From a virus (taxonomy: Duplodnaviria; Caudoviricetes), in IMG/VR virus record IMGVR_UViG_3300027759_000044: a DNA stretch of 64,000 nucleotides; one strand, written 5' to 3'. The number at the start of each line of letters is the position of its first letter. Position 1 is the first letter of the stretch. Under the pieces are notes generated by a model that worked only from the letters and a program-made list of their open reading frames with translations, searched no databases and was not told where the DNA came from. Shown here in pieces: positions 11,474 to 22,041 of the stretch. A program made the position numbers and the translations under genes.

Positions 11474-12074
11474 ACATTACAATTCCATTACCGTTCTTAA
11501 ATCCTACAGTACCACCCTCTGCTTCAATACGTTTTATAACATCTTCAAACAGTATGGGTCTATAGTCTGTATGTTCAACACATACGCAATGATAACGAAC
11601 ATCAATATAATGTCTACTACCACGTTGGTGAAACTCATGTAATGTTTCAACGTGTTTCATTACACGGTTAGCATGTAAGTGCCCGTGAATGTTAACACCA
11701 AATCTTCCCAATGATTCTTCATGTATTGGAATGTGACTTAATATCATTCCATTCATAACATGATAAGCACGTAGTTCACGGAAGTATTCTCTATACTCAT
11801 CATCACGGAAAATATCATGGTTACCACGAATCAATACTTTATCACCGTTTAAGCGACTCATAATCTTTAATGCTTTACGGTTAATGACAACATCGCCCAA
11901 GTGATATACTTTATCCTTAGGTCTAACTGTTTCATTCCAACGCTTAACCATTTCTTCATCCATTTCATCAGGATCAGTCCATGGCCTTAATTTTGTAACA
12001 CCATCGTTACGTGTGAAATGACATACTCCGGAATGCCCGAAGTGTGTGTCACTTGTTAAAAATACTGCGGGCAT
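11472..12074 (-). CDS. Calcineurin-like metallophosphoesterase
   Basis: SDTHFGH, HLGDV, RGNHD, SHIP, NIHGHLH motifs. Confidence 0.92.
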   Translation of the reverse strand: MPAVFLTSDTHFGHSGVCHFTRNDGVTKLRPWTDPDEMDEEMVKRWNETVRPKDKVYHLGDVVINRKALKIMSRLNGDKVLIRGNHDIFRDDEYREYFRELRAYHVMNGMILSHIPIHEESLGRFGVNIHGHLHANRVMKHVETLHEFHQRGSRHYIDVRYHCVCVEHTDYRPILFEDVIKRIEAEGGTVGFKNGNGIVM

Positions 12075-12088
12075 ATAATTCCTTTATT

Positions 12089-12163
12089 TGGCATACCCCC
12101 AAGGATTCGAACCTTGCCTTGCGGTTTTGGAGACCGATGTGCTGCCGCTAACACCAGGGATAC
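12089..12163 (-). tRNA. trnW: tRNA-Trp(CCA)
   Basis: Cloverleaf, loop CTCCAAA, T-loop GGTTCGAATCC, encoded CCA. Confidence 0.9.
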
Positions 12164-12168
12164 ATTGT

Positions 12169-12390
12169 TTACAAATTCTTTCTAATTCGTTTAAGATATT
12201 CACGTCCAACAAGTCCTTGTTCAATTTCTTCTAATGCAGTTACCATTGGCCCTGATTTAGTATTAAGCATAGAACGATGTCCTCGTTTTAATTCTCTTAC
12301 ACGTTGTGAGGCGATAAGAACTAAATCAAAACGATTACCGACCATGAGTGCGGCTTCTTCACTTGTATATCTTGCTCTGCTTTGTGACAT
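12169..12390 (-). CDS. rpoZ: RNA polymerase omega subunit
   Basis: 73 aa from MSQSRARYTSEEAALMVGNRFDLVLIASQRVRELKRG...VTALEEIEQG; matches omega signature NRFDLVLxAxxRARxL...ALxEI. Confidence 0.88.
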   Translation of the reverse strand: MSQSRARYTSEEAALMVGNRFDLVLIASQRVRELKRGHRSMLNTKSGPMVTALEEIEQGLVGREYLKRIRKNL

Positions 12391-12410
12391 AATTTTCCTT
12401 TTAAAAATTT

Positions 12411-12486
12411 TGGTGGGTCGTGACAGGCTCGAACTGCCGACATTCTGCGTGTAAGGCAGACGCTCTACCAACTGAGCTAACGACCC
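12411..12486 (-). tRNA. trnV: tRNA-Val(TAC)
   Basis: Cloverleaf, loop CTTACAC, CCA end. Confidence 0.93.
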
Positions 12487-12491
12487 GATGT

Positions 12492-12671
12492 TTAACCACC
12501 TTGGTTACTATCTTTAACTTCTGTTTGACTAGCAATTCTTTCAAATGCTTCATCTTCTATTTGTTGATCCTCAATCATTCTTGGATCTGGCTTACGAAAG
12601 ATATTATCCCAGTTATTATTAAACGTATTTAAATCTACGCTATATGGTCTAGGAAGACTACCTTTGCTCAT
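12492..12671 (-). CDS. Small hypothetical protein (59 aa, MSKGSLPRP...)
   Basis: Hand-translated; start overlaps upstream stop. Confidence 0.6.
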   Translation of the reverse strand: MSKGSLPRPYSVDLNTFNNNWDNIFRKPDPRMIEDQQIEDEAFERIASQTEVKDSNQGG

Positions 12672-12835
12672 TTGCTATTATCCTTGCGAGAACTTGTACG
12701 TGAATTGCTTTTTTCAATTTCAACAAAACTACGAATAAAAGCTCCACGTTCATGTGCATCACGAATTAGTGTTGCCGCACGTTTAACTGCTTTAGGGATT
12801 TTAACTGCCCTTGAATCATAACCTCTACATGTCAT
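12668..12835 (-). CDS. Small basic hypothetical protein (55 aa, MTCRGYDSRAVKIPK...)
   Basis: Hand-translated; SD GAGGA. Confidence 0.6.
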   Translation of the reverse strand: MTCRGYDSRAVKIPKAVKRAATLIRDAHERGAFIRSFVEIEKSNSRTSSRKDNSK

Positions 12836-12860
12836 ACTATTTCCTCTTTTAAAAAATCAT

Positions 12861-12934
12861 TGGTCTCGGTAGCAGGAATCGAACCTACGCTCGAACGTCC
12901 CAAACGTTCAGTGATACCATTTCACCATACCGAG
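12861..12934 (-). tRNA. trnP: tRNA-Pro(TGG)
   Basis: Anticodon arm GAACG-TTTGGGA-CGTTC, CCA end. Confidence 0.92.
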
Positions 12935-12940
12935 ATAAAC

Positions 12941-13090
12941 TTAACTTGGTATTATATGTGGTATATATGGAACATTACGTGGACCATGTCGCTGTTCAAG
13001 TAGCTTTTTAGCTTCTTGTACATTTGGTGCGTACACTTTGTCCTTTTTATCACCTTCCGGTGTTCTTACTGTTGTTTCATACATTGGCAT
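12941..13090 (-). CDS. Small hypothetical protein (49 aa, MPMYETTVRTPEG...)
   Basis: Hand-translated; SD AGGAG; ends approximate. Confidence 0.55.
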   Translation of the reverse strand: MPMYETTVRTPEGDKKDKVYAPNVQEAKKLLEQRHGPRNVPYIPHIIPS

Positions 13091-13141
13091 ATAATTCTCC
13101 TATTTGGTTACGCCATACGGCACTTAAACTATTTTATTTGG

Positions 13142-13672
13142 TTAATATGCCCAAATAACTCCTGAAAAACGTGTTCCTTTTGTTACTTCTGTCACACCAT
13201 GTCGATATAAAAAGGTAGAAGGGAACAGTAATACATCACCTTGACTTAATTTTATAACTTCATCGTTCATTGTAAAATTTCCACCTTCAAAATCATCATT
13301 AAAAACTAATATCATAGATATAACAGGAATACCATCATCTTTATTTCTTCTAATTAAATCATAGTGAGGTGACATTATAGTACCGACTGAATATTTGTTT
13401 AATCTTAACTCAGAACAAAATGATACTATCATATCCATATTCAATTCTATTAAATATTCCAGCATTGCTTGATGTATGTAAGGGTCTATATAATCAACAT
13501 TATTAAATAATACATCTAATTCTCTATTATGCTGAGGGCCGTATTTATCTGCTCCAGCACTGTACCATGCATGTTGTACCCAATTAGGATGATCTTTATG
13601 TTCTCTAATTACTTTTTCACAAATATCTTTTGGTATAATATTATATATTTTACAATAGTCTTTGATTTCCAT
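13142..13672 (-). CDS. 2OG-Fe(II) oxygenase (prolyl-4-hydroxylase/PKHD-like)
   Basis: HYD...LVFNDDFEGGNF...YRHGVTEVTKGTR facial triad and Arg. Confidence 0.88.
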   Translation of the reverse strand: MEIKDYCKIYNIIPKDICEKVIREHKDHPNWVQHAWYSAGADKYGPQHNRELDVLFNNVDYIDPYIHQAMLEYLIELNMDMIVSFCSELRLNKYSVGTIMSPHYDLIRRNKDDGIPVISMILVFNDDFEGGNFTMNDEVIKLSQGDVLLFPSTFLYRHGVTEVTKGTRFSGVIWAY

Positions 13673-13689
13673 AAGTTCACCTTTAAATT

Positions 13690-13764
13690 TGGATGCGGGG
13701 GACGGATTCGCACCGCCGATCTTCAGGTTATGAGCCTGATGAGTTACTACTTCTCTACCCCGCG
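13690..13764 (-). tRNA. tRNA-fMet(CAT), initiator type
   Basis: CGCGGGG acceptor with C1:A72 mismatch, loop CTCATAA; atypical T-loop TGCGAAT. Confidence 0.85.
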
Positions 13765-13770
13765 CTATCT

Positions 13771-13846
13771 TGGTGGAGGAGACAGGGATCGAACCTGCGA
13801 CCTATTGCTTGCAAAGCAACCGCTCTCCCAACTGAGCTACACCCCC
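13771..13846 (-). tRNA. trnA: tRNA-Ala(TGC)
   Basis: Cloverleaf, loop TTTGCAA, CCA end. Confidence 0.92.
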
Positions 13847-13855
13847 AAATACTTT

Positions 13856-13940
13856 TGGTGCCCTAGGTCGGACTCGAACCGACACATATTTCTACGCCAG
13901 AACCTAAATCTGGTGCGTCTACCAATTTCGCCACCAGGGC
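13856..13940 (-). tRNA. trnL: tRNA-Leu(TAG)
   Basis: Long variable arm, loop TTTAGGT, CCA end. Confidence 0.92.
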
Positions 13941-14000
13941 ATTCATTTCAATACTTATTGTAACATAAAACTATTTAGTTGTCTACTACTTTGGATAACT

Positions 14001-14074
14001 TGGAGCGGGGTAACAGAATCGAACTGTCAGCATTAGCTTGGAAGGCTAAGGTATTACCACTATACGAACCCCGC
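14001..14074 (-). tRNA. trnG: tRNA-Gly(TCC)
   Basis: Loop CTTCCAA, CCA end. Confidence 0.93.
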
Positions 14075-14100
14075 AAAAAAGCCCACAGTATTTAGTGGGC
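14075..14100 (-). terminator. Intrinsic terminator whose loop contains the late promoter core
   Basis: Minus strand GCCCAC-TAAATACT-GTGGGC-TTTTTT immediately 5' of tRNA-Gly. Confidence 0.7.
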
Positions 14101-14122
14101 CCTTTGTCTGTGTGTGAAAGTT

Positions 14123-14362
14123 TTATTTCCTATCAAAGGCCCAGAATAAAACTCCTAGAGCAACAAGACCTACTAGACCTTGACTACCCAATGCTGTCAC
14201 AAACTTTAATACATTACCTAAAATGTCTAAACCTATGAATGGCACTGCCGCTCCGAAAATGATTTGTAAGATTACGCCTACTGCTAATAACTTGATACCT
14301 AAGTCAACTACGTGCCCTAGAAATCCACCAGCAATATCGAATGCGTTATTCATTTTTTCCAT
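14123..14362 (-). CDS. Small membrane protein
   Basis: Hydrophobic helices; SD AAGGA before MEKMNNAF. Confidence 0.75.
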   Translation of the reverse strand: MEKMNNAFDIAGGFLGHVVDLGIKLLAVGVILQIIFGAAVPFIGLDILGNVLKFVTALGSQGLVGLVALGVLFWAFDRK

Positions 14363-14469
14363 GTTTTTGTTTCCTTTCACAAACTAATATTTACCTCTTT
14401 GTGAAGGCTTCAAAGCACATTCTCTTTACATTATTAGACTATTCTTATTACACAATAAGTCTATATATT

Positions 14470-14545
14470 TGGAGTAGGTGACAGGAGTCGAACCTGCATA
14501 GCACGGATTTGCAATCCGCTACCTAACCATTCGGTACACACCTAC
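14470..14545 (-). tRNA. trnC: tRNA-Cys(GCA)
   Basis: Loop TTGCAAA, U73, CCA end. Confidence 0.92.
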
Positions 14546-14550
14546 ATAAA

Positions 14551-14637
14551 AGCATATTGAAACACACTAACTACCTTGGTATGTACTAAAGTTCAATGAA
14601 CCGCTACGACCCTATCTTTAATGTGCTTCAATATGCT
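14551..14637 (-). ncRNA. Hairpin RNA, 20-bp stem + 47-nt loop (element A)
   Basis: AGCATATTGAAGCACATTAA / TTAGTGTGTTTCAATATGCT pair fully on minus strand with two G-U wobbles; 5 nt before tRNA-Cys. Confidence 0.65.
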
Positions 14638-14639
14638 CT

Positions 14640-14832
14640 GCGTCCCCCGGCGGTAATTATAGTACAAAAAGATATGACGCTATCATACCCCTCACACGTA
14701 CCTTCCACCCGCTTCCCGACAGGGACCGTTCTCGCATTGCTAGCGGCCTTTGGGTTTAAAGACTACCACCCGTAGTTGTCACACTACTTCTCATCCTGCG
14801 GGTCACAGTATCCGGAGACACCCGGAACGTTC
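14640..14832 (-). ncRNA. Unidentified GC-rich structured RNA (~190 nt)
   Basis: Hairpins TCCGG/CCGGA, ACTAC/GTAGT, GGTATGAT/GTCATATC (G-U on minus), possible closing CGTTCC/GGGACG. Confidence 0.55.
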
Positions 14833-14847
14833 TTTTATAAATACAGT

Positions 14848-15030
14848 ATGGAACTACAAAACTGTATTGATGTTGTTGAAAAGTTGTTGCGTCAAAACAA
14901 ACGTAATTACAAAGATAGCCACGAACAATTGTTATATGAACGAGGATACCTTACTGGATTACTTGCTAGATTGATGAATGATGACCCTCATATTCTACAT
15001 AAAGTCATAAACAAAACAAATAATCGCTAA
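14848..15030 (+). CDS. Small hypothetical late protein (60 aa)
   Basis: TATAAATA 4 nt before ATG 14848; LYERGYLTGLLARL. Confidence 0.65.
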   Translation: MELQNCIDVVEKLLRQNKRNYKDSHEQLLYERGYLTGLLARLMNDDPHILHKVINKTNNR

Positions 15031-15031
15031 T

Positions 15032-15123
15032 TGGTGGAGACGGTGAGATTCGAACTCACGGTACATATTACTACATACGACAGGTTAGCAACCTGCTGCC
15101 TTAGGCCACTCGGCCACGTCTCC
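15032..15123 (-). tRNA. trnS: tRNA-Ser(GCT)
   Basis: Long variable arm, loop TTGCTAA, CCA end. Confidence 0.92.
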
Positions 15124-15137
15124 TGATAAATACAAAA

Positions 15138-15659
15138 ATGCAACACAATTTCTTTTACAAAAAAATAGGTAACATATCTGATGATTTGCTTTACGGTTTA
15201 CAAAGTGATGCAATATCTGCAACATATAAATCAACTTCAGATTTTTCATCCAATGTATTAACTACCAGTAATAGAGTTAACAGTAAATTACTTATTAAGT
15301 TATTTACTGAGCTAGCTACTGTGTTTAAAATTATAGGTCATATAGGCACTAATTATGCTAAAATGTATCCATTGAGTTATCTCAAAGAACATAGCGACCT
15401 TTCGTCATATGAAAAAGAACCATTGAATTATTCAACTATGGTAAAATTGCAAATCCCTATCATAACAAATGAAAAAGTAGGAATGATGTGGGCACCAACT
15501 CCTAATGAAACTACACTTGTTAACTTTGATATAGGTGGAATTTACATTATCGATAATGTAAGAACTCACTCTGTGGTAAATCTAAGCAATGAATATAGAT
15601 ATAATCTAACCTCTAGATGGAAGGTTGATTCATTACTTGATACATCAATCTTAGAGTAA
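15138..15659 (+). CDS. Asp/Asn beta-hydroxylase-like 2OG oxygenase
   Basis: LKEHSD...KLQIPIITNEK...IDNVRTHSVVNLSNEYRYNL. Confidence 0.75.
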   Translation: MQHNFFYKKIGNISDDLLYGLQSDAISATYKSTSDFSSNVLTTSNRVNSKLLIKLFTELATVFKIIGHIGTNYAKMYPLSYLKEHSDLSSYEKEPLNYSTMVKLQIPIITNEKVGMMWAPTPNETTLVNFDIGGIYIIDNVRTHSVVNLSNEYRYNLTSRWKVDSLLDTSILE

Positions 15660-15662
15660 TAC

Positions 15663-15739
15663 TGGTGCCTCCACCTGGACTCGAACCAGGAACCAACGGA
15701 TTATGAGTCCGCTGCGCTAACCAATTGCGCTATAGAGGC
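15663..15739 (-). tRNA. tRNA-Ile2(CAT, lysidine type)
   Basis: Anticodon arm GCGGA-CTCATAA-TCCGT and overall similarity to bacterial Ile2; Met identity not excluded. Confidence 0.78.
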
Positions 15740-15748
15740 ATCATTCTT

Positions 15749-15833
15749 TGGTGCGAGTGCCCGGAATCGAACCGGGATGCCGTTAAGCGAGAGATTTTAA
15801 GTCTCTTGTGTCTACCTATTTCACCACACTCGC
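15749..15833 (-). tRNA. trnL: tRNA-Leu(TAA)
   Basis: Loop CTTAAAA, long variable arm, CCA end. Confidence 0.93.
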
Positions 15834-15846
15834 AAATCATGTTATC

Positions 15847-15875
15847 ATTATATATCAATCAATGATTGTAGTCAA
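15847..15875 (-). promoter_or_regulatory. Internal sigma70 promoter in tRNA cluster
   Basis: TTGACT-17 nt-TATAAT just upstream of tRNA-Leu(TAA). Confidence 0.7.
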
Positions 15876-15894
15876 ATATTATGGTTAACTAACT

Positions 15895-15969
15895 TGGCGG
15901 TCCCAGCGGGTAACGATCCCGCTCCTCATGCGTGACAGGCATGTATGCGTCCATGAACACTTTGAGACC
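15895..15969 (-). tRNA. trnD: tRNA-Asp(GTC)
   Basis: Loop CTGTCAC, G73, CCA end; atypical T-loop ATCGTTA. Confidence 0.88.
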
Positions 15970-15978
15970 TAATACTGA

Positions 15979-16037
15979 ATAGGACACCCCTTTGGCCTAG
16001 GTCATTTAAGAGTACGCCTGCCCAGCGACTCTCCTAT
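15979..16037 (-). ncRNA. Possible hairpin RNA, 6-bp stem + 47-nt loop (element B)
   Basis: ATAGGA/TCCTAT closing pair, GC-rich interior with GAGT-CGC/GCG-TACTC hairpin; between tRNA-Tyr and tRNA-Asp. Confidence 0.35.
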
Positions 16038-16042
16038 ATTCT

Positions 16043-16127
16043 TGGTGGAGATTACTGGGATCGAACCAGTCGTGCTATAAAGCGGCGGATTTACAATCCA
16101 CTGCATCACCATTGATGCTTCATCTCC
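16043..16127 (-). tRNA. trnY: tRNA-Tyr(GTA)
   Basis: Loop TTGTAAA, long variable arm, CCA end. Confidence 0.92.
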
Positions 16128-16131
16128 GAGA

Positions 16132-16194
16132 TGAGTTACGGTTGCAAGACCTAGTGTCTCATTACTGAGAGAAGTATCAGGGCGATGTAACTCA
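16132..16194 (-). ncRNA. Hairpin RNA, 8-bp stem + 47-nt loop (element C)
   Basis: TGAGTTAC/GTAACTCA; central TCTCA-GTAA-TGAGA GNRA hairpin; 4 nt before tRNA-Tyr. Confidence 0.55.
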
Positions 16195-16199
16195 AAAAA

Positions 16200-16402
16200 T
16201 TAGTATAAGCTACTTGTTTCCACACAAGCCCTTAATTGAGCAGTTACTCTGTCCATCTCCATTTATTCAAAGTCTGTGTGCAGTTGAGATTCTGCCTATC
16301 AGAGCCTGCGAGGGTATTTTTAATCCTCACGCTAACGGTTTTCTGCCACCGGATCTCTATCGCTAATCAAACGCTATTTTAACGAAAATAGTAACGGGAT
16401 AC
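16200..16402 (-). ncRNA. Unidentified structured RNA (~200 nt)
   Basis: Hairpins CTATTTT/AAAATAG, GCGTGAGG/CCCTCGC, GAG-TAACTG-CTC, CTTGT/ACAAG; no ORF. Confidence 0.45.
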
Positions 16403-16478
16403 TGGAGCTCGGTACGGGATTCGAACCCGTGTGAATGCCGTGAAAGGGCACTATCCTAGGCCGCTAGATGAACCGAGC
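16403..16478 (-). tRNA. trnE: tRNA-Glu(TTC)
   Basis: Loop CTTTCAC, CCA end. Confidence 0.92.
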
Positions 16479-16480
16479 AA

Positions 16481-16694
16481 ACTATATGAAAAAACATTAA
16501 GGAACGTAAACTGTATCTACCAGTACCGTCTACTGGATCGTTGTTTCTGTCATTACTGCCTAACTTCCCGTCACGTTAAACAATATTGCTATTGTAGATA
16601 CGCTTCTTGCACCCTATGCGACCCAGTCCGTCAACTGGCTGACCCCATAGACCTACCTAACGGATTAGGTTACCTTAATGTATTTTCATATAGT
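16481..16694 (-). ncRNA. Multibranch RNA closed by a 22-bp stem (214 nt)
   Basis: ACTATATGAAAATACATTAAGG pairs with CCTTAATGTTTTTTCATATAGT (1 mismatch); interior GTATCTAC/GTAGATAC, two CCAGT/ACTGG hairpins, ACCTAA-TCCG-TTAGGT; 2 nt before tRNA-Glu. Confidence 0.65.
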
Positions 16695-16731
16695 CCCTGT
16701 AACTTAAACAGGGCTATATGATAACTCAGAA

Positions 16732-16773
16732 TTTTAAAGAACTCGGTTGAGTAGTACGATGACTTTTCTCAAC
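16732..16773 (-). promoter_or_regulatory. rrn-like boxB hairpin + boxA antitermination signal
   Basis: GTTGAG/CTCAAC hairpin followed by AGTTCTTTAAAA just after promoter 16784-16812. Confidence 0.5.
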
Positions 16774-16783
16774 TCATGCTATG

Positions 16784-16812
16784 ATTGTAGCACAACTTCC
16801 ATTTATTGTCAA
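16784..16812 (-). promoter_or_regulatory. sigma70 promoter (tandem P2)
   Basis: TTGACA-17 nt-TACAAT. Confidence 0.8.
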
Positions 16813-16864
16813 ATTCTTTCGTTTCTCTGTTTCCCAAGAACTTGTTCAATCAATCTATGTCTAG

Positions 16865-16893
16865 AGTATAGCAGATTGAGGATTTATTGTCAA
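16865..16893 (-). promoter_or_regulatory. sigma70 promoter (tandem P1)
   Basis: TTGACA-17 nt-TATACT. Confidence 0.8.
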
Positions 16894-16947
16894 ATTTACT
16901 ATTTTAGTACTTAATACTACATAAAATATGTGATGATAAATATTCTT

Positions 16948-17544
16948 ATGACAACCTCCCTATATGATGATTTAGAATTACCAAAAACTTGCACCTCTGA
17001 AGAAATCAAACAAAAATACAGAATCTTAGCACAATTACATCATCCCGATAAGGGAGGGGATGTGGAAAAGTTCAAACGAATGAAATTGGCATATGAAGTA
17101 TTAAGTGACCCAATTAAACGTGAACACTATGATTCTACCGGTGATCATTATAATGATATTAATCTTGACAGTGAAGTTATGGGCAGGCTAGCTGTTATGC
17201 TTTCACAATTTGTTCAACATATCAATCCAGAGATTGATGATTTAATATTAAAAATGCGAATTGAAATCCGTGCATTACAACAACTGACAACAAATGCTAT
17301 TGTAGAATGTAACAATCTAATAGACAAGATGAATATTATTTCTAAGAAGATTAAATTAAAAAAAGAGGGTGAGAACTTATTAAAGTCTGTAGTTGATAAA
17401 AAAATCTTAGGACTGCATACTGAAATAATTAACCACAAAAGAGGATTAATAGTTTTTGCTAGAATGCTAGAAGTATTAGAGGATTATCATTTTAGTAGTG
17501 ACGAATGGAAACTACTACTAGAAAATTTTGATGGTCCAGCGTAG
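16948..17544 (+). CDS. J-domain (DnaJ-like) protein
   Basis: LYDDLEL...EEIKQKYRILAQLHHPDKGGDVEKFKRMKLAYEVLSDP; HPD motif; start reassigned from TAAATA+5 nt. Confidence 0.9.
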   Translation: MTTSLYDDLELPKTCTSEEIKQKYRILAQLHHPDKGGDVEKFKRMKLAYEVLSDPIKREHYDSTGDHYNDINLDSEVMGRLAVMLSQFVQHINPEIDDLILKMRIEIRALQQLTTNAIVECNNLIDKMNIISKKIKLKKEGENLLKSVVDKKILGLHTEIINHKRGLIVFARMLEVLEDYHFSSDEWKLLLENFDGPA

Positions 17545-17606
17545 AGGAATCGAACCTCTATTGATAGCTTAGAAGGCTACTGTATTATCCATTATACTAA
17601 CGCCAG
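17532..17606 (-). tRNA. trnR: tRNA-Arg(TCT)
   Basis: Loop CTTCTAA, CCA end; overlaps 3' end of J-domain CDS in antisense. Confidence 0.92.
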
Positions 17607-17621
17607 AGGTTTTAATTTATT

Positions 17622-17697
17622 TGGCTCCCCTACGTGGGCTCGAACCACGGACATTTTGATTAACAGTCAAACGCTCTACCGACTGAGCTATAGGAGA
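17622..17697 (-). tRNA. trnN: tRNA-Asn(GTT)
   Basis: Loop CTGTTAA, CCA end. Confidence 0.93.
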
Positions 17698-17704
17698 ATA
17701 TGTT

Positions 17705-17780
<76 letters not shown>

Positions 17781-17806
17781 GACTTTTTATTTAATAGTAT
17801 TATACA

Positions 17807-18367
17807 CTAACTTAATAAAATTCTACTATGTTTTGGAACACCTGCTAACAAATATTCCATTTGGTCAGCAAGTATTGTTCTATGTTGTAATATCATATTT
17901 TCATAGTGATTAGGGACATAAGGTGTGTATAGTAATTCCATACGTACTTCTTTCAAACTCTTATGACCTTTTTTACTGTTACAATCTTTACAAGCTGTAA
18001 CAACATTCATCCAAGTGTTTTCACCACCTTTGCTCCGAGGAACAATGTGGTCACGACTTAGTAGATGATAGTTTGGAAACTGTTCCCCGCAATAAGCACA
18101 TACATGTCTATCACGACCAAACAATGTTTTATTGGTTAGTGCCACACATGAATGTTTGTATGGATTGAATCCATGACCTTTTATGGCAATAATGCTACTA
18201 GCTTCTAAGTAACTTAATGTGCCGTCATTTTGTATGCCACCACGATATTTAGCCACAATATTACCCATTGACCATGCTATGGCATCTTTTGCTTTATAGG
18301 TAATTGCGTCATCATTTGATATCCATTGCCGGGGAACTCCCGAGATATCTAGTGCTAGAACAGCCAT
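17807..18367 (-). CDS. HNH endonuclease (McrA/HNH_5-like)
   Basis: RDRHVCAYCG...DHIVPRSKGG...NVVTACKDCNSKKG; SD GGAG before MAVLALD. Confidence 0.9.
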   Translation of the reverse strand: MAVLALDISGVPRQWISNDDAITYKAKDAIAWSMGNIVAKYRGGIQNDGTLSYLEASSIIAIKGHGFNPYKHSCVALTNKTLFGRDRHVCAYCGEQFPNYHLLSRDHIVPRSKGGENTWMNVVTACKDCNSKKGHKSLKEVRMELLYTPYVPNHYENMILQHRTILADQMEYLLAGVPKHSRILLS

Positions 18368-18414
18368 GTAGTACTCCTTTTCTGTTATTATCACTATATG
18401 TATTTAATGCCGAG

Positions 18415-18489
18415 TGGCGGGTCCTGCAGGAATTGAACCCACATCCCGAAGTTCGAAGCATCGTATTCTATCCATTGAACTAAGGACCC
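18415..18489 (-). tRNA. trnR: tRNA-Arg(TCG)
   Basis: Loop CTTCGAA, CCA end. Confidence 0.88.
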
Positions 18490-18649
18490 GATTAAAGAGG
18501 GAGCCTAGCTATCTTATTGTTAGTAAGCCTCGCTAGATTGTCTCGTATAGGCAAGTTTATACACCTATCAATCATACTATAGTGTCATCACAGTTAACCC
18601 CACTGTGACTAGATTGACAGGGACTCAAACCTATCGTCTATCCCATAAC
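18490..18649 (-). ncRNA. Possible structured RNA between tRNA-Gln and tRNA-Arg(TCG)
   Basis: TCACAGT/ACTGTGA and TAGG/CCTA hairpins, duplicated CAATCTAG; no ORF. Confidence 0.35.
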
Positions 18650-18727
18650 TGGCACCCCCTCAAGGATTCGAACCTCAGAATGTCGGAATCAAAATCCGAT
18701 GCCTTAGACCAACTTGGCGAAGGGGGT
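18650..18727 (-). tRNA. trnQ: tRNA-Gln(TTG)
   Basis: Arm TCGGA-TTTTGAT-TCCGA, CCA end. Confidence 0.9.
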
Positions 18728-18732
18728 AAATT

Positions 18733-18806
18733 TGGTACCCAGTAGAGGTAACGCTCCTCTGATTCACCCTTATCAGGGGTGTGTTATACTTTTTAACTAA
18801 CCGGGC
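18733..18806 (-). tRNA. trnI: tRNA-Ile(GAT), atypical D and T loops
   Basis: Arm CACCC-CTGATAA-GGGTG; D-loop lacks GG; T-loop AGCGTTA. Confidence 0.82.
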
Positions 18807-18811
18807 ATGTT

Positions 18812-18886
18812 TGGTGGATGTAAGTAGATTTGAACTACTGACCTATTCCGTATGAAGGAATTGCACTACCGCTGTGCTATACATCC
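18812..18886 (-). tRNA. tRNA-Met(CAT), elongator type
   Basis: Arm ATTCC-TTCATAC-GGAAT, paired 1:72. Confidence 0.85.
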
Positions 18887-18965
18887 TGGTACCCCTGATC
18901 GGGTTTGAACCGACAACTGACGCTCTCTCTTGAAGAACCGACTTTTCCTATTTGTCTACAGGGGC
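18887..18965 (-). tRNA. Atypical tRNA-Leu-like gene (anticodon AAG or CAA depending on register)
   Basis: Normal acceptor/D/T arms and CCA; arm GTTCT-TCAAGAG-AGAGC puts C at 33; short variable region. Confidence 0.55.
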
Positions 18966-18971
18966 ATTGAT

Positions 18972-19048
18972 TGGGGTGCTTGATGGGATTCGAACCCACG
19001 TATATCGGAATCACAATCCGAGGTCTTAACCGCTTGACGACAAGCACC
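18972..19048 (-). tRNA. trnH: tRNA-His(GTG)
   Basis: Loop TTGTGAT, G-1:C73, CCA end. Confidence 0.93.
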
Positions 19049-19054
19049 GTGTAT

Positions 19055-19144
19055 TGGTAGAAACGGTGAGATTCGAACTCACGGACCCTTTCGGATCGAC
19101 AGTTTTCAAGACTGTTGCCATAAACCTGACTCGACCACGTTTCC
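19055..19144 (-). tRNA. trnS: tRNA-Ser(TGA)
   Basis: Loop CTTGAAA, long variable arm. Confidence 0.92.
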
Positions 19145-19150
19145 ATATTA

Positions 19151-19226
19151 TGGTGGGACCAGGGCGGTTCGAACGCCCGACCAACGGATTAAAAGTCCGC
19201 TGCTCTACCGACTGAGCTATGGTCCC
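19151..19226 (-). tRNA. trnK: tRNA-Lys(TTT)
   Basis: Loop CTTTTAA, CCA end. Confidence 0.93.
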
Positions 19227-19232
19227 GTATAT

Positions 19233-19309
19233 TGGTGCGACCGGAAGGACTTGAACCTCCGACTCCCTATTTCGTAGACAGGTACTCTAATCCACTGAGT
19301 TACGGCCGC
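19233..19309 (-). tRNA. trnR: tRNA-Arg(ACG)
   Basis: Loop CTACGAA, CCA end. Confidence 0.92.
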
Positions 19310-19390
19310 ATTCTAAAACACACATAGTACACCCTAGTCAACAGGGTTGCCCTCTTGGCCTTATTTTCCACGATGTATGTTTTAGAATGC
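19308..19390 (-). ncRNA. Hairpin RNA, 18-bp stem + 47-nt loop (element D)
   Basis: GCATTCTAAAACATACAT / ATGTGTGTTTTAGAATGC (one G-U on minus); overlaps first 2 nt of tRNA-Arg(ACG). Confidence 0.65.
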
Positions 19391-19536
19391 CGTGTATCTC
19401 TACACGACATGATAGGGTCAATACCCTACCCAGTAGTCTTACTAACATGTTGTCTCCATGCTTTCATGTATACTGTCCGCCCATTCTATACATTTAACGT
19501 TGTATTACGGCTCTCGTTGCCTATTCACGTTATCTA
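19391..19536 (-). ncRNA. Possible structured RNA (~145 nt)
   Basis: Hairpins CGTGTA-GAGA-TACACG, GGTAGGGT-ATTG-ACCCTATC, TACA/TGTA, GGC/GCC; no ORF. Confidence 0.45.
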
Positions 19537-19704
19537 TCAAGCAATACCAGCTAGCTTGTTAGCTTTCTTGGTAGCCTCTTGAAAGACTTTAGCACGTTGA
19601 AGTTTATTTTCTATCAACTGTGCTACTTGTTCCTTAGTCAAAACATGATTGCTAAACCAATCTTGTTTGTTTTCAGAAGTTTTGTATTCTATCTGTTCAT
19701 CCAT
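19537..19704 (-). CDS. Small hypothetical protein (55 aa, MDEQIEYKTS...)
   Basis: Hand-translated; first ORF after the attenuator; SD GAGG about 12 nt upstream. Confidence 0.45.
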   Translation of the reverse strand: MDEQIEYKTSENKQDWFSNHVLTKEQVAQLIENKLQRAKVFQEATKKANKLAGIA

Positions 19705-19726
19705 TTCTTGTCAAATCCTCTCTGTA

Positions 19727-19764
19727 AAAGCAAAAACCCCTGAGACTGTTAGTTCCCAGGGGTT
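19727..19764 (-). terminator. Attenuator terminator
   Basis: AACCCCTGGGA(AC)-TAACA-GTCTCAGGGGTT followed by TTTGCTTTT. Confidence 0.85.
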
Positions 19765-19810
19765 AGATAAAGTTGTTATGATGTTAACTTGTTACCTAGT
19801 CCCCGGGGTT
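19755..19810 (-). promoter_or_regulatory. Antiterminator helix overlapping leader stop codon and terminator 5' arm
   Basis: CCCCGGGG-AC-TAGGTA-AC-AAGTT...AACTT-TATCTA-A-CCCCTGGG; three stacked helices. Confidence 0.75.
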
Positions 19811-19929
19811 CTCTCTTGGTTATCATTTGAACCGCGAATACTTGTTGGATATGCTGGTACAAAGGATACACTGGCTAATGACAGCCACTGTCCGGTGTGT
19901 TTCAACATGTTACAAGTTTTATTCATCAT
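19792..19929 (-). CDS. 45-aa leader peptide containing all 20 amino acids
   Basis: MMNKTCNMLKHTGQWLSLASVSFVPAYPTSIRGSNDNQERTPGTR*; below ORF-track cutoff; TAAATA 7 nt upstream of ATG and sigma70 promoter at 19985-20013. Confidence 0.75.
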   Translation of the reverse strand: MMNKTCNMLKHTGQWLSLASVSFVPAYPTSIRGSNDNQERTPGTR

Positions 19930-19984
19930 AGTCTTTTATTTAGTCCTGGGTGCAAAATTTACACCTTTTCTCAATTCATGCTGA

Positions 19985-20013
19985 AGTATAGCATAGGTCG
20001 GAATTAATGTCAA
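19985..20013 (-). promoter_or_regulatory. sigma70 promoter heading the tRNA cluster
   Basis: TTGACA-17 nt-TATACT. Confidence 0.85.
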
Positions 20014-20023
20014 CATCTTAGGG

Positions 20024-20914
20024 TTATTTCACATTTTTGATAGCAGAATCTACATGAGCCTTAAGAGTAGCTGGCCCAAATTTTGATGGTTCAATGTGTT
20101 CCGTTGTAAAATATTCAACTGTTGAAGTATCTGTTAAATATTTTTGTATTAAATTACCCCAAAAGATATGTACTTCTGTATTAGTATTATTTGGCAGCAC
20201 TATAGCAAAACCATCGTTAGATTCCCAATTTGGATATCTTTTGTATAAATCTGTGGTTTCATTAATTTTTACAGTAGTAGCTATCAATACTATTTTCTTA
20301 GAATCAATTTGAGATTTTACTATATTGAGTGGAACTACTGCAACATCAATATGCCCTCCTAATAAATCATTGAGTAGAGGATTTGCTCCCTTATAAGGAA
20401 TGAAGTCCGGCGGTGTTGTTTTATTATGTAAAAATAATTGGTTTAGTGCAATTTTTTGTGCTGGTGCACCAAATGCAAAACTTTTTGTTATCTTTTTAGC
20501 TTTGATTTCAACTTCTAAATCATTAATAGTTTTAATTCCACTATTTGTATGTGTGATTACAGCCATTGTCGGCTTGCTAATCATAGAGATGTAATCAAAT
20601 TGGTAATCGGGATATTTGTTTTTGTACGTAGCAATACCTGCTATAGTAACAAATCCTATGGTTGATCCATTATTTTTTGCGGCCGCGATTTCAGACAAAC
20701 CAATTAAACTATCTGCACCGGGTTTGTATGTTGGAATAATTACCAATCCACTAGTTTCTTCTATATATTTTTGAAAATGTTTGAATGCAATATCTGTTCC
20801 GCCCCCCGGTGGAAATGGTATAATCATTTTTACAGAATTTTTATCTGAATTAAATAACTGGGCTGAACATAAAGATGATATTGTAAGTAAAAATATTGTT
20901 ATAAATTTTTTCAT
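20024..20914 (-). CDS. Bug/TctC-family tripartite tricarboxylate transporter substrate-binding protein
   Basis: Signal peptide; MIIPFPPGGGTD, YKPGADSLIG, IPYKGANPLLNDLLGGHID motifs. Confidence 0.88.
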   Translation of the reverse strand: MKKFITIFLLTISSLCSAQLFNSDKNSVKMIIPFPPGGGTDIAFKHFQKYIEETSGLVIIPTYKPGADSLIGLSEIAAAKNNGSTIGFVTIAGIATYKNKYPDYQFDYISMISKPTMAVITHTNSGIKTINDLEVEIKAKKITKSFAFGAPAQKIALNQLFLHNKTTPPDFIPYKGANPLLNDLLGGHIDVAVVPLNIVKSQIDSKKIVLIATTVKINETTDLYKRYPNWESNDGFAIVLPNNTNTEVHIFWGNLIQKYLTDTSTVEYFTTEHIEPSKFGPATLKAHVDSAIKNVK

Positions 20915-22041
20915 ATGTCGGTTACATAAAAGTATTTTGACGAGGTTACCTCATATACTTGAGGACCCGTGGAAGATTTTTTTGTTAGAAATCTATCGTC
21001 AATCATATTTACCCTAGTAACAACATTGTGAAAATATTTCTCTCTAATAGTAGACAATTCCGGATGTTCATAAAACCAAAAGAATTTATCTGTTCTACTA
21101 GCACTATTTGGTTTGTCCGCTTGAAATCGATTATCCCAATTACTATATAATAAACTCCTAGACAAATCATTTTGAAACTGGTTAACTATGACTTTTTCTT
21201 CAGGTGGCCTAGTTGTAATATTCCATAGAAATTTTTGCTTATCAGGATTTGCTTTATAATATAACGCTAATTGATATGCCTGTTCAAAAGGTAGTATAGG
21301 GAAATCAGGCGTCCAATAAAAACACTCAGTATTTTCTGAATCAATGTTTCCACGTCCAGCCTGATCCAAACATACATCAGTAAAAAACATATAAATCTTT
21401 TGTTTATGAGTAAACAATAATGGTTTATCTATGCCATATATATGCGATACTTTTTTACTGTTAAAATACAGATTACTATCAGACATTACACTGTTTAGTA
21501 AAATACCACCACCCCTTACAAAATTCAATTTTTCAAAAATTTCATCAACATTTAACGTATCAATTGATTCAGTGTAATCTTTAATTGTTATTTTAACGTT
21601 TGGTTTGTTTTTTGCCATCCATTCAAGTATCGGTTTAATAGCATAATTCCATTCACTCCAGTAGTTTCTTGCTGAGGTATCACTACTGTTCGGGGAATAG
21701 AACATACCATCCATTAATGTTTTGGGCCACTTTACACAAACCTCATCTAGTTTGATGTCATTATCAACAAAGGTGCGTAGTATGTTGTGGCTATCTGCGC
21801 CACCACTATAATACAATATCAAATAATCATATGTATCCCTGAGTTGTTGCGCTCTATCTCTATACAACTCATTAAGTGAACGTTTGCCTAACTGAGACCG
21901 ATCAAAGTTATTCCACACGTTATTGTGATAGTGAAAATTTATTGGAAAGGTAGTTGGGGATGCACTTACTAATGCATCATATTTGTTCAAATATTTTTGA
22001 TCATTAACTGTCCAATAGCCATATTTCTCTGTTTGAATCAT
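20911..22041 (-). CDS. AsnB-like PP-loop ATP-pyrophosphatase
   Basis: LYYSGGADSHN; no N-terminal Ntn glutaminase domain recognisable. Confidence 0.78.
   Translation of the reverse strand: MIQTEKYGYWTVNDQKYLNKYDALVSASPTTFPINFHYHNNVWNNFDRSQLGKRSLNELYRDRAQQLRDTYDYLILYYSGGADSHNILRTFVDNDIKLDEVCVKWPKTLMDGMFYSPNSSDTSARNYWSEWNYAIKPILEWMAKNKPNVKITIKDYTESIDTLNVDEIFEKLNFVRGGGILLNSVMSDSNLYFNSKKVSHIYGIDKPLLFTHKQKIYMFFTDVCLDQAGRGNIDSENTECFYWTPDFPILPFEQAYQLALYYKANPDKQKFLWNITTRPPEEKVIVNQFQNDLSRSLLYSNWDNRFQADKPNSASRTDKFFWFYEHPELSTIREKYFHNVVTRVNMIDDRFLTKKSSTGPQVYEVTSSKYFYVTDI

Follow-up and report, generated by a model that had tools for sequence, protein, structure and literature searches.

The attenuators of amino-acid operons (trpL, hisL, leuL, thrL, pheL and ilv) consist of a short open reading frame (ORF) near the promoter and, behind it, an antiterminator and a terminator with one strand in common; which of these two hairpins forms depends on how far the ribosome has moved, and termination is favored once it is at the stop codon. 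The bmrB leader of the Bacillus subtilis bmrCD genes is a ribosome-mediated attenuator that senses general translation stress (PMC4191407). In systems of this type, a stall within the leader ORF, whatever its cause, leads to the antiterminator and turns the downstream genes on. T-box riboswitches likewise link the status of transfer RNAs (tRNAs) to the choice between antiterminator and terminator, but they bind uncharged tRNA directly and without an ORF, and they are characterized by a Stem I, a specifier loop and a UGGN bulge. Phage tRNA genes themselves are now viewed as counter-measures to tRNA-cleaving host defenses, and recent work has addressed why phages carry tRNAs, not how their tRNA genes are regulated (PMC11464382, PMC10264068). 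Here, we analyze a leader unit at the head of a tRNA array in a stretch of 64,000 nucleotides (nt) of DNA from an uncultured lake phage (Duplodnaviria; Caudoviricetes; IMG/VR record IMGVR_UViG_3300027759_000044), hereafter the window. The unit spans positions 20013-19727 on the minus strand, as do all features of the window described below, and precedes 26 tRNA genes. We favor, with a confidence slightly better than even, the reading that it is a ribosome-dependent transcription attenuator whose leader peptide contains all 20 amino acids.

The unit has the general layout of the trpL-type attenuators: a short ORF lies close to the promoter, the antiterminator and the terminator have a strand in common, and the position of the ribosome would choose the hairpin, with termination favored when it reaches the stop codon. 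Four hallmarks of such attenuators can be recognized, namely a leader ORF that is probably translated, an intrinsic terminator, a mutually exclusive antiterminator of comparable stability and, in our models, a ribosome at the stop codon that blocks the antiterminator. A further hallmark, a run of regulatory codons for one or two amino acids, is absent from the leader. Instead, each amino acid occurs at least once in the phage leader, which is also longer than those of the trpL type (41–54 codons) and conserved in sequence. Other differences are that a small ORF and tRNA genes, rather than biosynthetic enzymes, lie downstream and that a second promoter is found past the terminator. Searching positions 11500-21000 against Rfam (cmscan, E ≤ 1) returned only tRNAs and chance matches, with no His_leader, Trp_leader, Thr_leader, Leu_leader or T-box, and we saw none of the T-box features (Stem I, specifier loop, UGGN bulge) in the unit. 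By analogy of function, stall sensors of the bmrB-bmrCD type appear to be its nearest analogues. These systems differ from the phage unit in that antibiotics directed at the ribosome trigger them and the genes under their control serve efflux or protection, and no sequence relationship was found between the unit and bmrB-type leaders. Our literature search found no paper describing an attenuator ahead of tRNA genes in phages or a leader with all amino acids.

The unit begins with promoter P1 (20013-19985), which reads TTGACA-17-TATACT with a TG before the -10 element and matches 11 of the 12 positions of the sigma-70 consensus; relatives carry TTGACA or TTGACT, a 17-nt spacer and TATACT or TATAAT. 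The leader ORF, taken from the ORF list, occupies 19929-19792 and has 45 codons that include all 20 amino acids. The antiterminator hairpin (19807-19755) is closed by a 7-base-pair (bp) clamp, CCCGGGG:CCCUGGG, with arms at 19807-19801 and 19761-19755. Inside the clamp are a lower stem (UAGGUAA/UUAUCUA), a GUUA/UAAC tip stem and the tip loop ACAUCA. The last codons of the leader and its TAA stop codon (19794-19792) sit in the 5' strand of this hairpin, the stop being part of the lower stem. The 3' arm of the antiterminator is also the 5' arm of the intrinsic terminator (AACCCCUGGGA/UCUCAGGGGUU plus a U-tract; 19764-19727), whose stem (19764-19735) has 11 bp, six of them GC pairs, and whose U-tract extends to 19727. 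In isolation, the terminator folds at -17.6 kcal/mol in the window and at -16.6 to -19 kcal/mol across sequences. Folds of the window region were compared with shuffled sequences and gave z = -2.6 for 111 nt and z = -3.2 for 254 nt. The RNA predicted from P1 up to the terminator measures ~250 nt. The preliminary description of this locus had listed P1, the 45-codon ORF, the antiterminator and a terminator sharing its arm, and we recovered each of them on the minus strand where it had placed them. Its count of 26 tRNAs was likewise reproduced (25 by ARAGORN and one by Rfam). It had listed the tRNA cluster next after the terminator; the first gene there, however, is a 55-amino-acid (aa) ORF, and the first tRNA starts at 19309.

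We collected relatives of this unit in several ways. An IMG/VR search with a structural DNA pattern yielded six contigs, and the 376-aa protein encoded upstream, used as a query, yielded four more distant ones. Searches with leader-peptide profiles recovered 27 viral loci and 52 metagenomic ones, for the most part of freshwater-lake origin, and a protein search contributed 74 additional cluster representatives. The complete leader ORF was present in 82 metagenomic loci, corresponding to 53 distinct ORF sequences. Relatives are designated below by locus labels (e.g., L007) only where they must be told apart. Eighteen relatives were scanned for tRNA genes, and in all 18 the leader unit heads an array of 9–29 tRNAs on the same strand, a layout that the preliminary description had suggested looking for in related phages. 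The distance from the unit to the first gene of the array ranges from a few hundred to ~1,200 nt, and no tRNA gene was found upstream of the unit in any of these 18 relatives. The order of the tRNAs in the arrays varies between lineages despite the constant position of the unit. No relative among cultured phages was detected, either by DNA or by four tested proteins; the ribonucleotide reductase provided the only match to cultured phages, at no more than 59% identity.

Both hairpins are conserved across these relatives. For the antiterminator, 91% of the cells are paired in an alignment of 51 distinct 3' regions, and six pairs change on both sides. None of 500 shuffles matched the observed covariation, and control structures slid along the alignment were only 25–58% paired. 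The lower stem provides an example of compensation, with UAGGUAA/UUAUCUA replaced by CGGAAUAA/UUAUUUUG, and the tip stem takes the forms GUUA/UAAC, AGUCUA/UAGAUU, UUAC/GUAA and UAACUA/UAGUUA among lineages. The clamp sequence CCCGGGG is read in two frames among the sequences, as T-P-G and as A-R-G, which shows that the RNA itself is constrained. The columns of the stop codon vary little or not at all and are paired within the antiterminator, and in all lineages the stop codon lies 5–7 nt past the clamp, within the 5' strand of the hairpin. The terminator is paired in 98.2% of cells (51 sequences) and shows a C-G to A-U change in 11 of them. Since the unit is conserved in 82 loci and covaries better than 500 of 500 shuffles, it is beyond what chance would produce, and the possibility of chance hairpins is ruled out.

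The two hairpins are also well matched in predicted stability. When the nascent RNA lacks the 3' arm of the terminator, the antiterminator is the minimum-energy fold in 47 of 48 variants, the outlier being L007, which has a different 5-bp clamp (GGGGU:ACCCU). The antiterminator region has a median energy of -19.7 kcal/mol, as compared with -14.4 kcal/mol for the isolated terminator, and the totals obtained by forcing one hairpin or the other are only a few kcal/mol apart. As modelled, these near-equal states would form the near-bistable layout expected of a switch and not that of a plain gene end. The alternative helices put forward in the preliminary description are thus conserved and covarying in relatives, with an antiterminator that is energetically competitive.

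The leader ORF evolves as a coding sequence. Third-position changes are synonymous across the 53 distinct sequences, and the frame is open in the 82 loci. Synonymous variation was observed at codons K10, H11, G13, Q14, P28, R32, G33, N37, E39 and G43 of the window peptide, and it involves the pairs or sets AAA/AAG, CAT/CAC, GGA/GGG, CAA/CAG, CCA/CCT, CGC/CGT, GGC/GGT/GGA, AAC/AAT and GAG/GAA. Insertions and deletions preserve the open frame, and the position of the stop codon within the hairpin stays constant. These patterns suggest that the leader is translated and fit the real coding sequence on which the attenuator proposal depends. A small RNA with no coding role is ruled out by the maintained ORF and the synonymous variation. 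Upstream of the start codon, the 5' untranslated region contains a conserved motif, AGGACUAAAUA (19947-19937), that places AGGA 14 nt before the ATG and is found at equal spacing in the window, in L001-L010 and in L007. The canonical Shine-Dalgarno spacing is missing at the leader; a Shine-Dalgarno-like motif is found at only ~17 of the 45 long ORFs of the window.

The amino-acid composition of the leader peptides was then compared with simulated expectations. Every amino acid is present in 88 of the 98 distinct full-length peptides (41–54 aa), and 85 of the 98 still hold all 20 after trimming the last five residues. Segments of equal length taken from the long ORFs of this phage contain all 20 amino acids at a base rate of 0.3–2%. 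We simulated evolution from an observed peptide along the maximum-likelihood tree using empirically estimated site rates, which already credit conserved rare residues. Across 900 of these tree-aware simulations, the number of complete peptides averaged 13–35 out of 98 and never exceeded 68, as compared with the 88 observed, and this result was stable over three roots and after rescaling the branches to the observed identity. The observed number lies above the maximum of the simulations, and the all-20 composition is under selection. Residues present in a single copy shift place instead of being lost: H passes from position 11 to 16, F (in P0030 and P0058) from 23 to 35 and, where N-D turns into E-N, D from 36 to about 18–20; E is found at position 18 or 39. 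The case of W is weaker: in L033 (W39) and in the L007 lineage (C-terminal W), this residue lies in or beside the RNA arm. The leader of the L009 lineage has no valine. We know of no reason for selecting all 20 amino acids except decoding by every class of charged tRNA and, to our knowledge, selection for a complete amino-acid set has not been reported for bmrB-type systems. A leader selected in this way is consistent with the general sensor of tRNA shortage suggested in the preliminary description.

These results can be combined into a scheme in which we infer that the leader is translated, that ribosomes stall, that folding kinetics select the hairpin and which physiological signal is sensed. 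Ribosomes would translate the 45-codon leader on the RNA started at P1. A ribosome arriving at the UAA would cover the 5' strand of the hairpin together with CCCGGGG and leave CCCUGGG free; the terminator would then form, and the P1 transcript would end at ~19727. A ribosome lagging or stalled upstream, at a codon for which charged tRNA is in short supply, would instead allow the antiterminator to fold first. The 5' arm of the terminator would be hidden, and RNA polymerase would go on to transcribe the 55-aa ORF and then the tRNA array. Candidate signals would be the depletion of tRNAs by anticodon nucleases or a mismatch between the host tRNA supply and the codon use of the phage. Whether the unit acts as a universal decoding sensor, such that a shortage of any charged tRNA would increase the transcription of the tRNA array and of a small partner protein, is a more tentative proposition that we place somewhat below even.

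Modelling the ribosome as a mask on the RNA gave results compatible with this scheme. With a ribosome on the stop codon, the probability of the terminator was 0.93–1.00 in seven of seven lineages, a result of geometry only that agrees with the arrangement first described. In L033, stalls at codons 30–36 gave antiterminator probabilities of 0.85–0.98. The equilibrium probability of the terminator for one and the same sequence varied from 0.02 to 0.87 depending on the length of upstream context. Equilibrium folding of this kind is compatible with a switch but not decisive, as the real choice would be kinetic.

The relation of the unit to the tRNA genes is defined by a second promoter, P2 (19714-19686; TTGACA-17-TAGAAT; 11/12 match), located directly 3' of the terminator. 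All 45 distinct downstream regions contain P2 with a match of at least 10/12 and a spacer of exactly 17 nt, 20–40 nt past the terminator. It is retained in the L009 lineage despite the decay of the small ORF: in L009 (9840-9870) and L010 (9838-9868), this ORF is reduced to five codons (MDTLL) and P2 is intact (TTGACA-17-TATAGT or TATACT). Since the conserved P2 lies directly past the terminator, transcription of the tRNAs would not depend on read-through, and read-through from P1 would only add to it. P2 would provide basal transcription of the array, and the switch would modulate rather than gate the tRNA supply. Of the logic first proposed, our reading retains the part in which efficient decoding would end transcription and stalling would let it pass, but not the gating of the tRNAs: their supply only when translation falters is at odds with the presence of P2 in 45 of 45 variants.

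The gene that would depend on read-through is the conserved 55-aa ORF (19704-19537), which lies past the terminator and before the first tRNA. The -10 hexamer of P2 lies inside this ORF, and its start codon is upstream of the predicted start of the P2 transcript, so that the full ORF would be translatable only from read-through RNA. It constitutes the sole target that strictly depends on read-through, the tRNAs having P2. Homologues of the 55-aa ORF were found in most relatives, including L007. It has no match in Pfam, nothing significant in PDB or Atlas, and one marginal match in PHROGs (phrog_7360, E = 0.0085, unknown function).

Sequences from this region are present in RNA libraries. Contigs from lake-water metatranscriptome assemblies of four studies cover 19452-20014, and four pieces bridge the terminator; as contigs rather than reads, they inform on presence and not on ends, strand or levels. 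Contigs from two runs stop at 19452-19459, inside the 227-nt spacer (19536-19310) that separates the 55-aa ORF from the first tRNA, and these ends could correspond to a processing site or to a strain break. The spacer contains short hairpins such as UAGGGU/ACCCUA and CGUGUA-GAGA-UACACG.

The leader RNA presents further structural features. A 5' hairpin, GGUGUAAAUUUUGCACC (19965-19949), was predicted from RNA folds near the predicted transcript start, and L001 has a hairpin of different sequence at the same place. A long-range helix, ACUUGU:ACAAGU, pairs 19917-19912 with 19846-19841 and connects codons 5–6 to codons 29–30 of the leader; it is replaced by UGUCAC:GUGACA in L007. Between its arms lies a variable hairpin, in the least conserved part of the peptide, and the helix and hairpin together may form a pause or structural domain. 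Candidate region 1, AGUAUUCGCGGUUC (19842-19829; codons 30–34), can pair with region 2 (19811-19798). Finally, the start-codon region UAUGAUG (19931-19925) is complementary to the tip loop CAUCAUA (19783-19777), and lineages with the loop UCAUAG have the alternative pairing partner CUAUGA. We rejected this start-codon-to-loop pairing as marginal (shuffle p of 0.003–0.055) and missing in L007.

Several observations weigh against the attenuator reading. The window has a three-way junction as its minimum-energy fold, and the 3' arm of the terminator is still paired in it. The equilibrium model of the window favors the terminator at most stall positions and the antiterminator at few, and those of L079 and L007 favor the terminator at every stall. 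The helix between regions 1 and 2 is predicted only for the window, L047, L050, L078 and L033/L082, and it is not part of the minimum-energy folds of L074, L077, L079, L084 and L087. Some late single-copy residues are only 1–3 codons away from the antiterminator arm (such as E39 of the window and W39 of L033), and a ribosome stalled there may mask this arm. P2 may leave little regulatory gain to be made from read-through, and the metatranscriptome contigs are compatible with DNA carry-over. Moreover, the block FVPAYPTSIRGSNDN of the peptide is conserved far beyond the needs of a sensor of hungry codons, and RNA pairing through region 1 and the ACUUGU:ACAAGU helix covers only part of the conservation of peptide order.

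This strong conservation of peptide order keeps open two rival explanations that rely on the peptide itself. The unit could be a stand-alone early gene or a dual-function small RNA, i.e., a stable ~250-nt RNA encoding a functional 45-aa peptide, whose hairpin over the stop codon would stabilize the RNA, control its translation or bind a protein rather than act on read-through. The presence of its own promoter and terminator, with P2 restarting transcription directly behind, would suit such a gene, as would the conserved order of the peptide and the extra conserved RNA features (the ACUUGU:ACAAGU helix and the loop complementary to the start-codon region). We nevertheless regard this account as unlikely, although it deserves serious consideration: it leaves unexplained the selected all-20 composition, a competitor of the 5' arm of the terminator that is as stable as the terminator and kept in 47 of 48 variants, and a 55-aa ORF without a promoter that would include its start codon. 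No homologue of the peptide was found in Pfam, in PHROGs or among cultured phages; with a T4 Stp-like early peptide in mind, 50,697 phage records were searched by tblastn (E ≤ 10) with the peptides of the window and of L007, without any relevant match. Alternatively, the conserved peptide, notably Y-P-T-S-I-R-G, could stall the ribosome from the exit tunnel in response to one signal, and this arrest, not hungry codons, would select the antiterminator. Conservation of the sequence past what its composition needs is expected under this model, and in the window, ~8 codons separate the end of the conserved block from the antiterminator arm, so that a ribosome stalled at this end would not cover the arm. 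Against this, no match to a known arrest motif or family was found, the conservation of the block can partly be explained by RNA pairing (region 1 and the ACAAGU helix) and the selection for all 20 amino acids would have no explanation, which makes an arrest peptide rather improbable in our view.

Two other explanations concern the RNA and not the peptide. A phage or host protein or RNA might bind the loop (CAUCA/CAUAG) and stabilize or melt the antiterminator, with translation remaining passive. Such a factor would account for a loop sequence that is conserved over lineages with different stems, L007 included, but no candidate binding factor was found, Rfam gave no match at E ≤ 1 (T-box included) and the inclusion of the stop codon in the hairpin, common to all lineages, suggests that the effector is the ribosome; we give this possibility little credence. 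The upstream CCC(C) GGGG sequence could also be part of a fail-safe terminator, where the CCC(C) upstream of GGGG would be a second partner for the 3' arm of the terminator and a three-way junction would ensure termination with or without the hairpin, nothing being regulated. Indeed, both the window and L074 have this three-way junction as their minimum-energy fold. However, most relatives pair the same CCC with the GGG of the terminator 5' arm, as in the antiterminator, L007 has no upstream CCC, and a four-pair helix closing the three-way junction would be needed to act as a terminator. This makes a fail-safe terminator very improbable.

The tRNA array itself extends from 19309 to 12089 and contains inserted ORFs and internal promoter-like sites. 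Among the latter, further 11/12 matches to the sigma-70 consensus were found at 16893-16865, 16812-16784 and 15875-15847. An ORF at 18394-17807 encodes an HNH endonuclease (Pfam HNH_5, E = 3e-18). The 26th tRNA (16046-16127), located between tRNA-Glu and tRNA-Asp, was overlooked by ARAGORN and scored 35.4 bits with Rfam. Relatives carry tRNA-Tyr (GTA) at this position and, if it is a tRNA-Tyr, the window lacks only tRNA-Phe, which several relatives possess. Apart from the terminator of the leader unit, a scan of 11500-21000 identified, as minus-strand terminator-like sites, only 12043-12025, just past the last tRNA, and 11829-11815. On the other side of the unit, a 296-aa protein (20914-20024) with a signal-like N-terminal segment matches the Pfam family TctC (E = 3e-14), the receptor of tripartite tricarboxylate transporters. 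Its gene lies between the gene of the 376-aa protein and the leader unit. The homologue of the 376-aa protein directly adjoins the unit in L009 and L010, with no gene between, so the TctC-like gene looks like an inserted host-like gene. Used as IMG/VR bait, this TctC-like neighbor recovered nothing.

A selected peptide of ~45 aa containing all 20 amino acids is unusual in itself and offers a simple criterion to search for further sensors. If our reading is correct, these phages would have built a new sensing logic from classical attenuator parts, one that reads the progress of the ribosome over the complete set of amino acids. The leader would then constitute a natural test track for all codon classes and provide the virus with feedback control of its translation capacity, which would connect the viral supply of tRNAs to translation stress in a testable manner.

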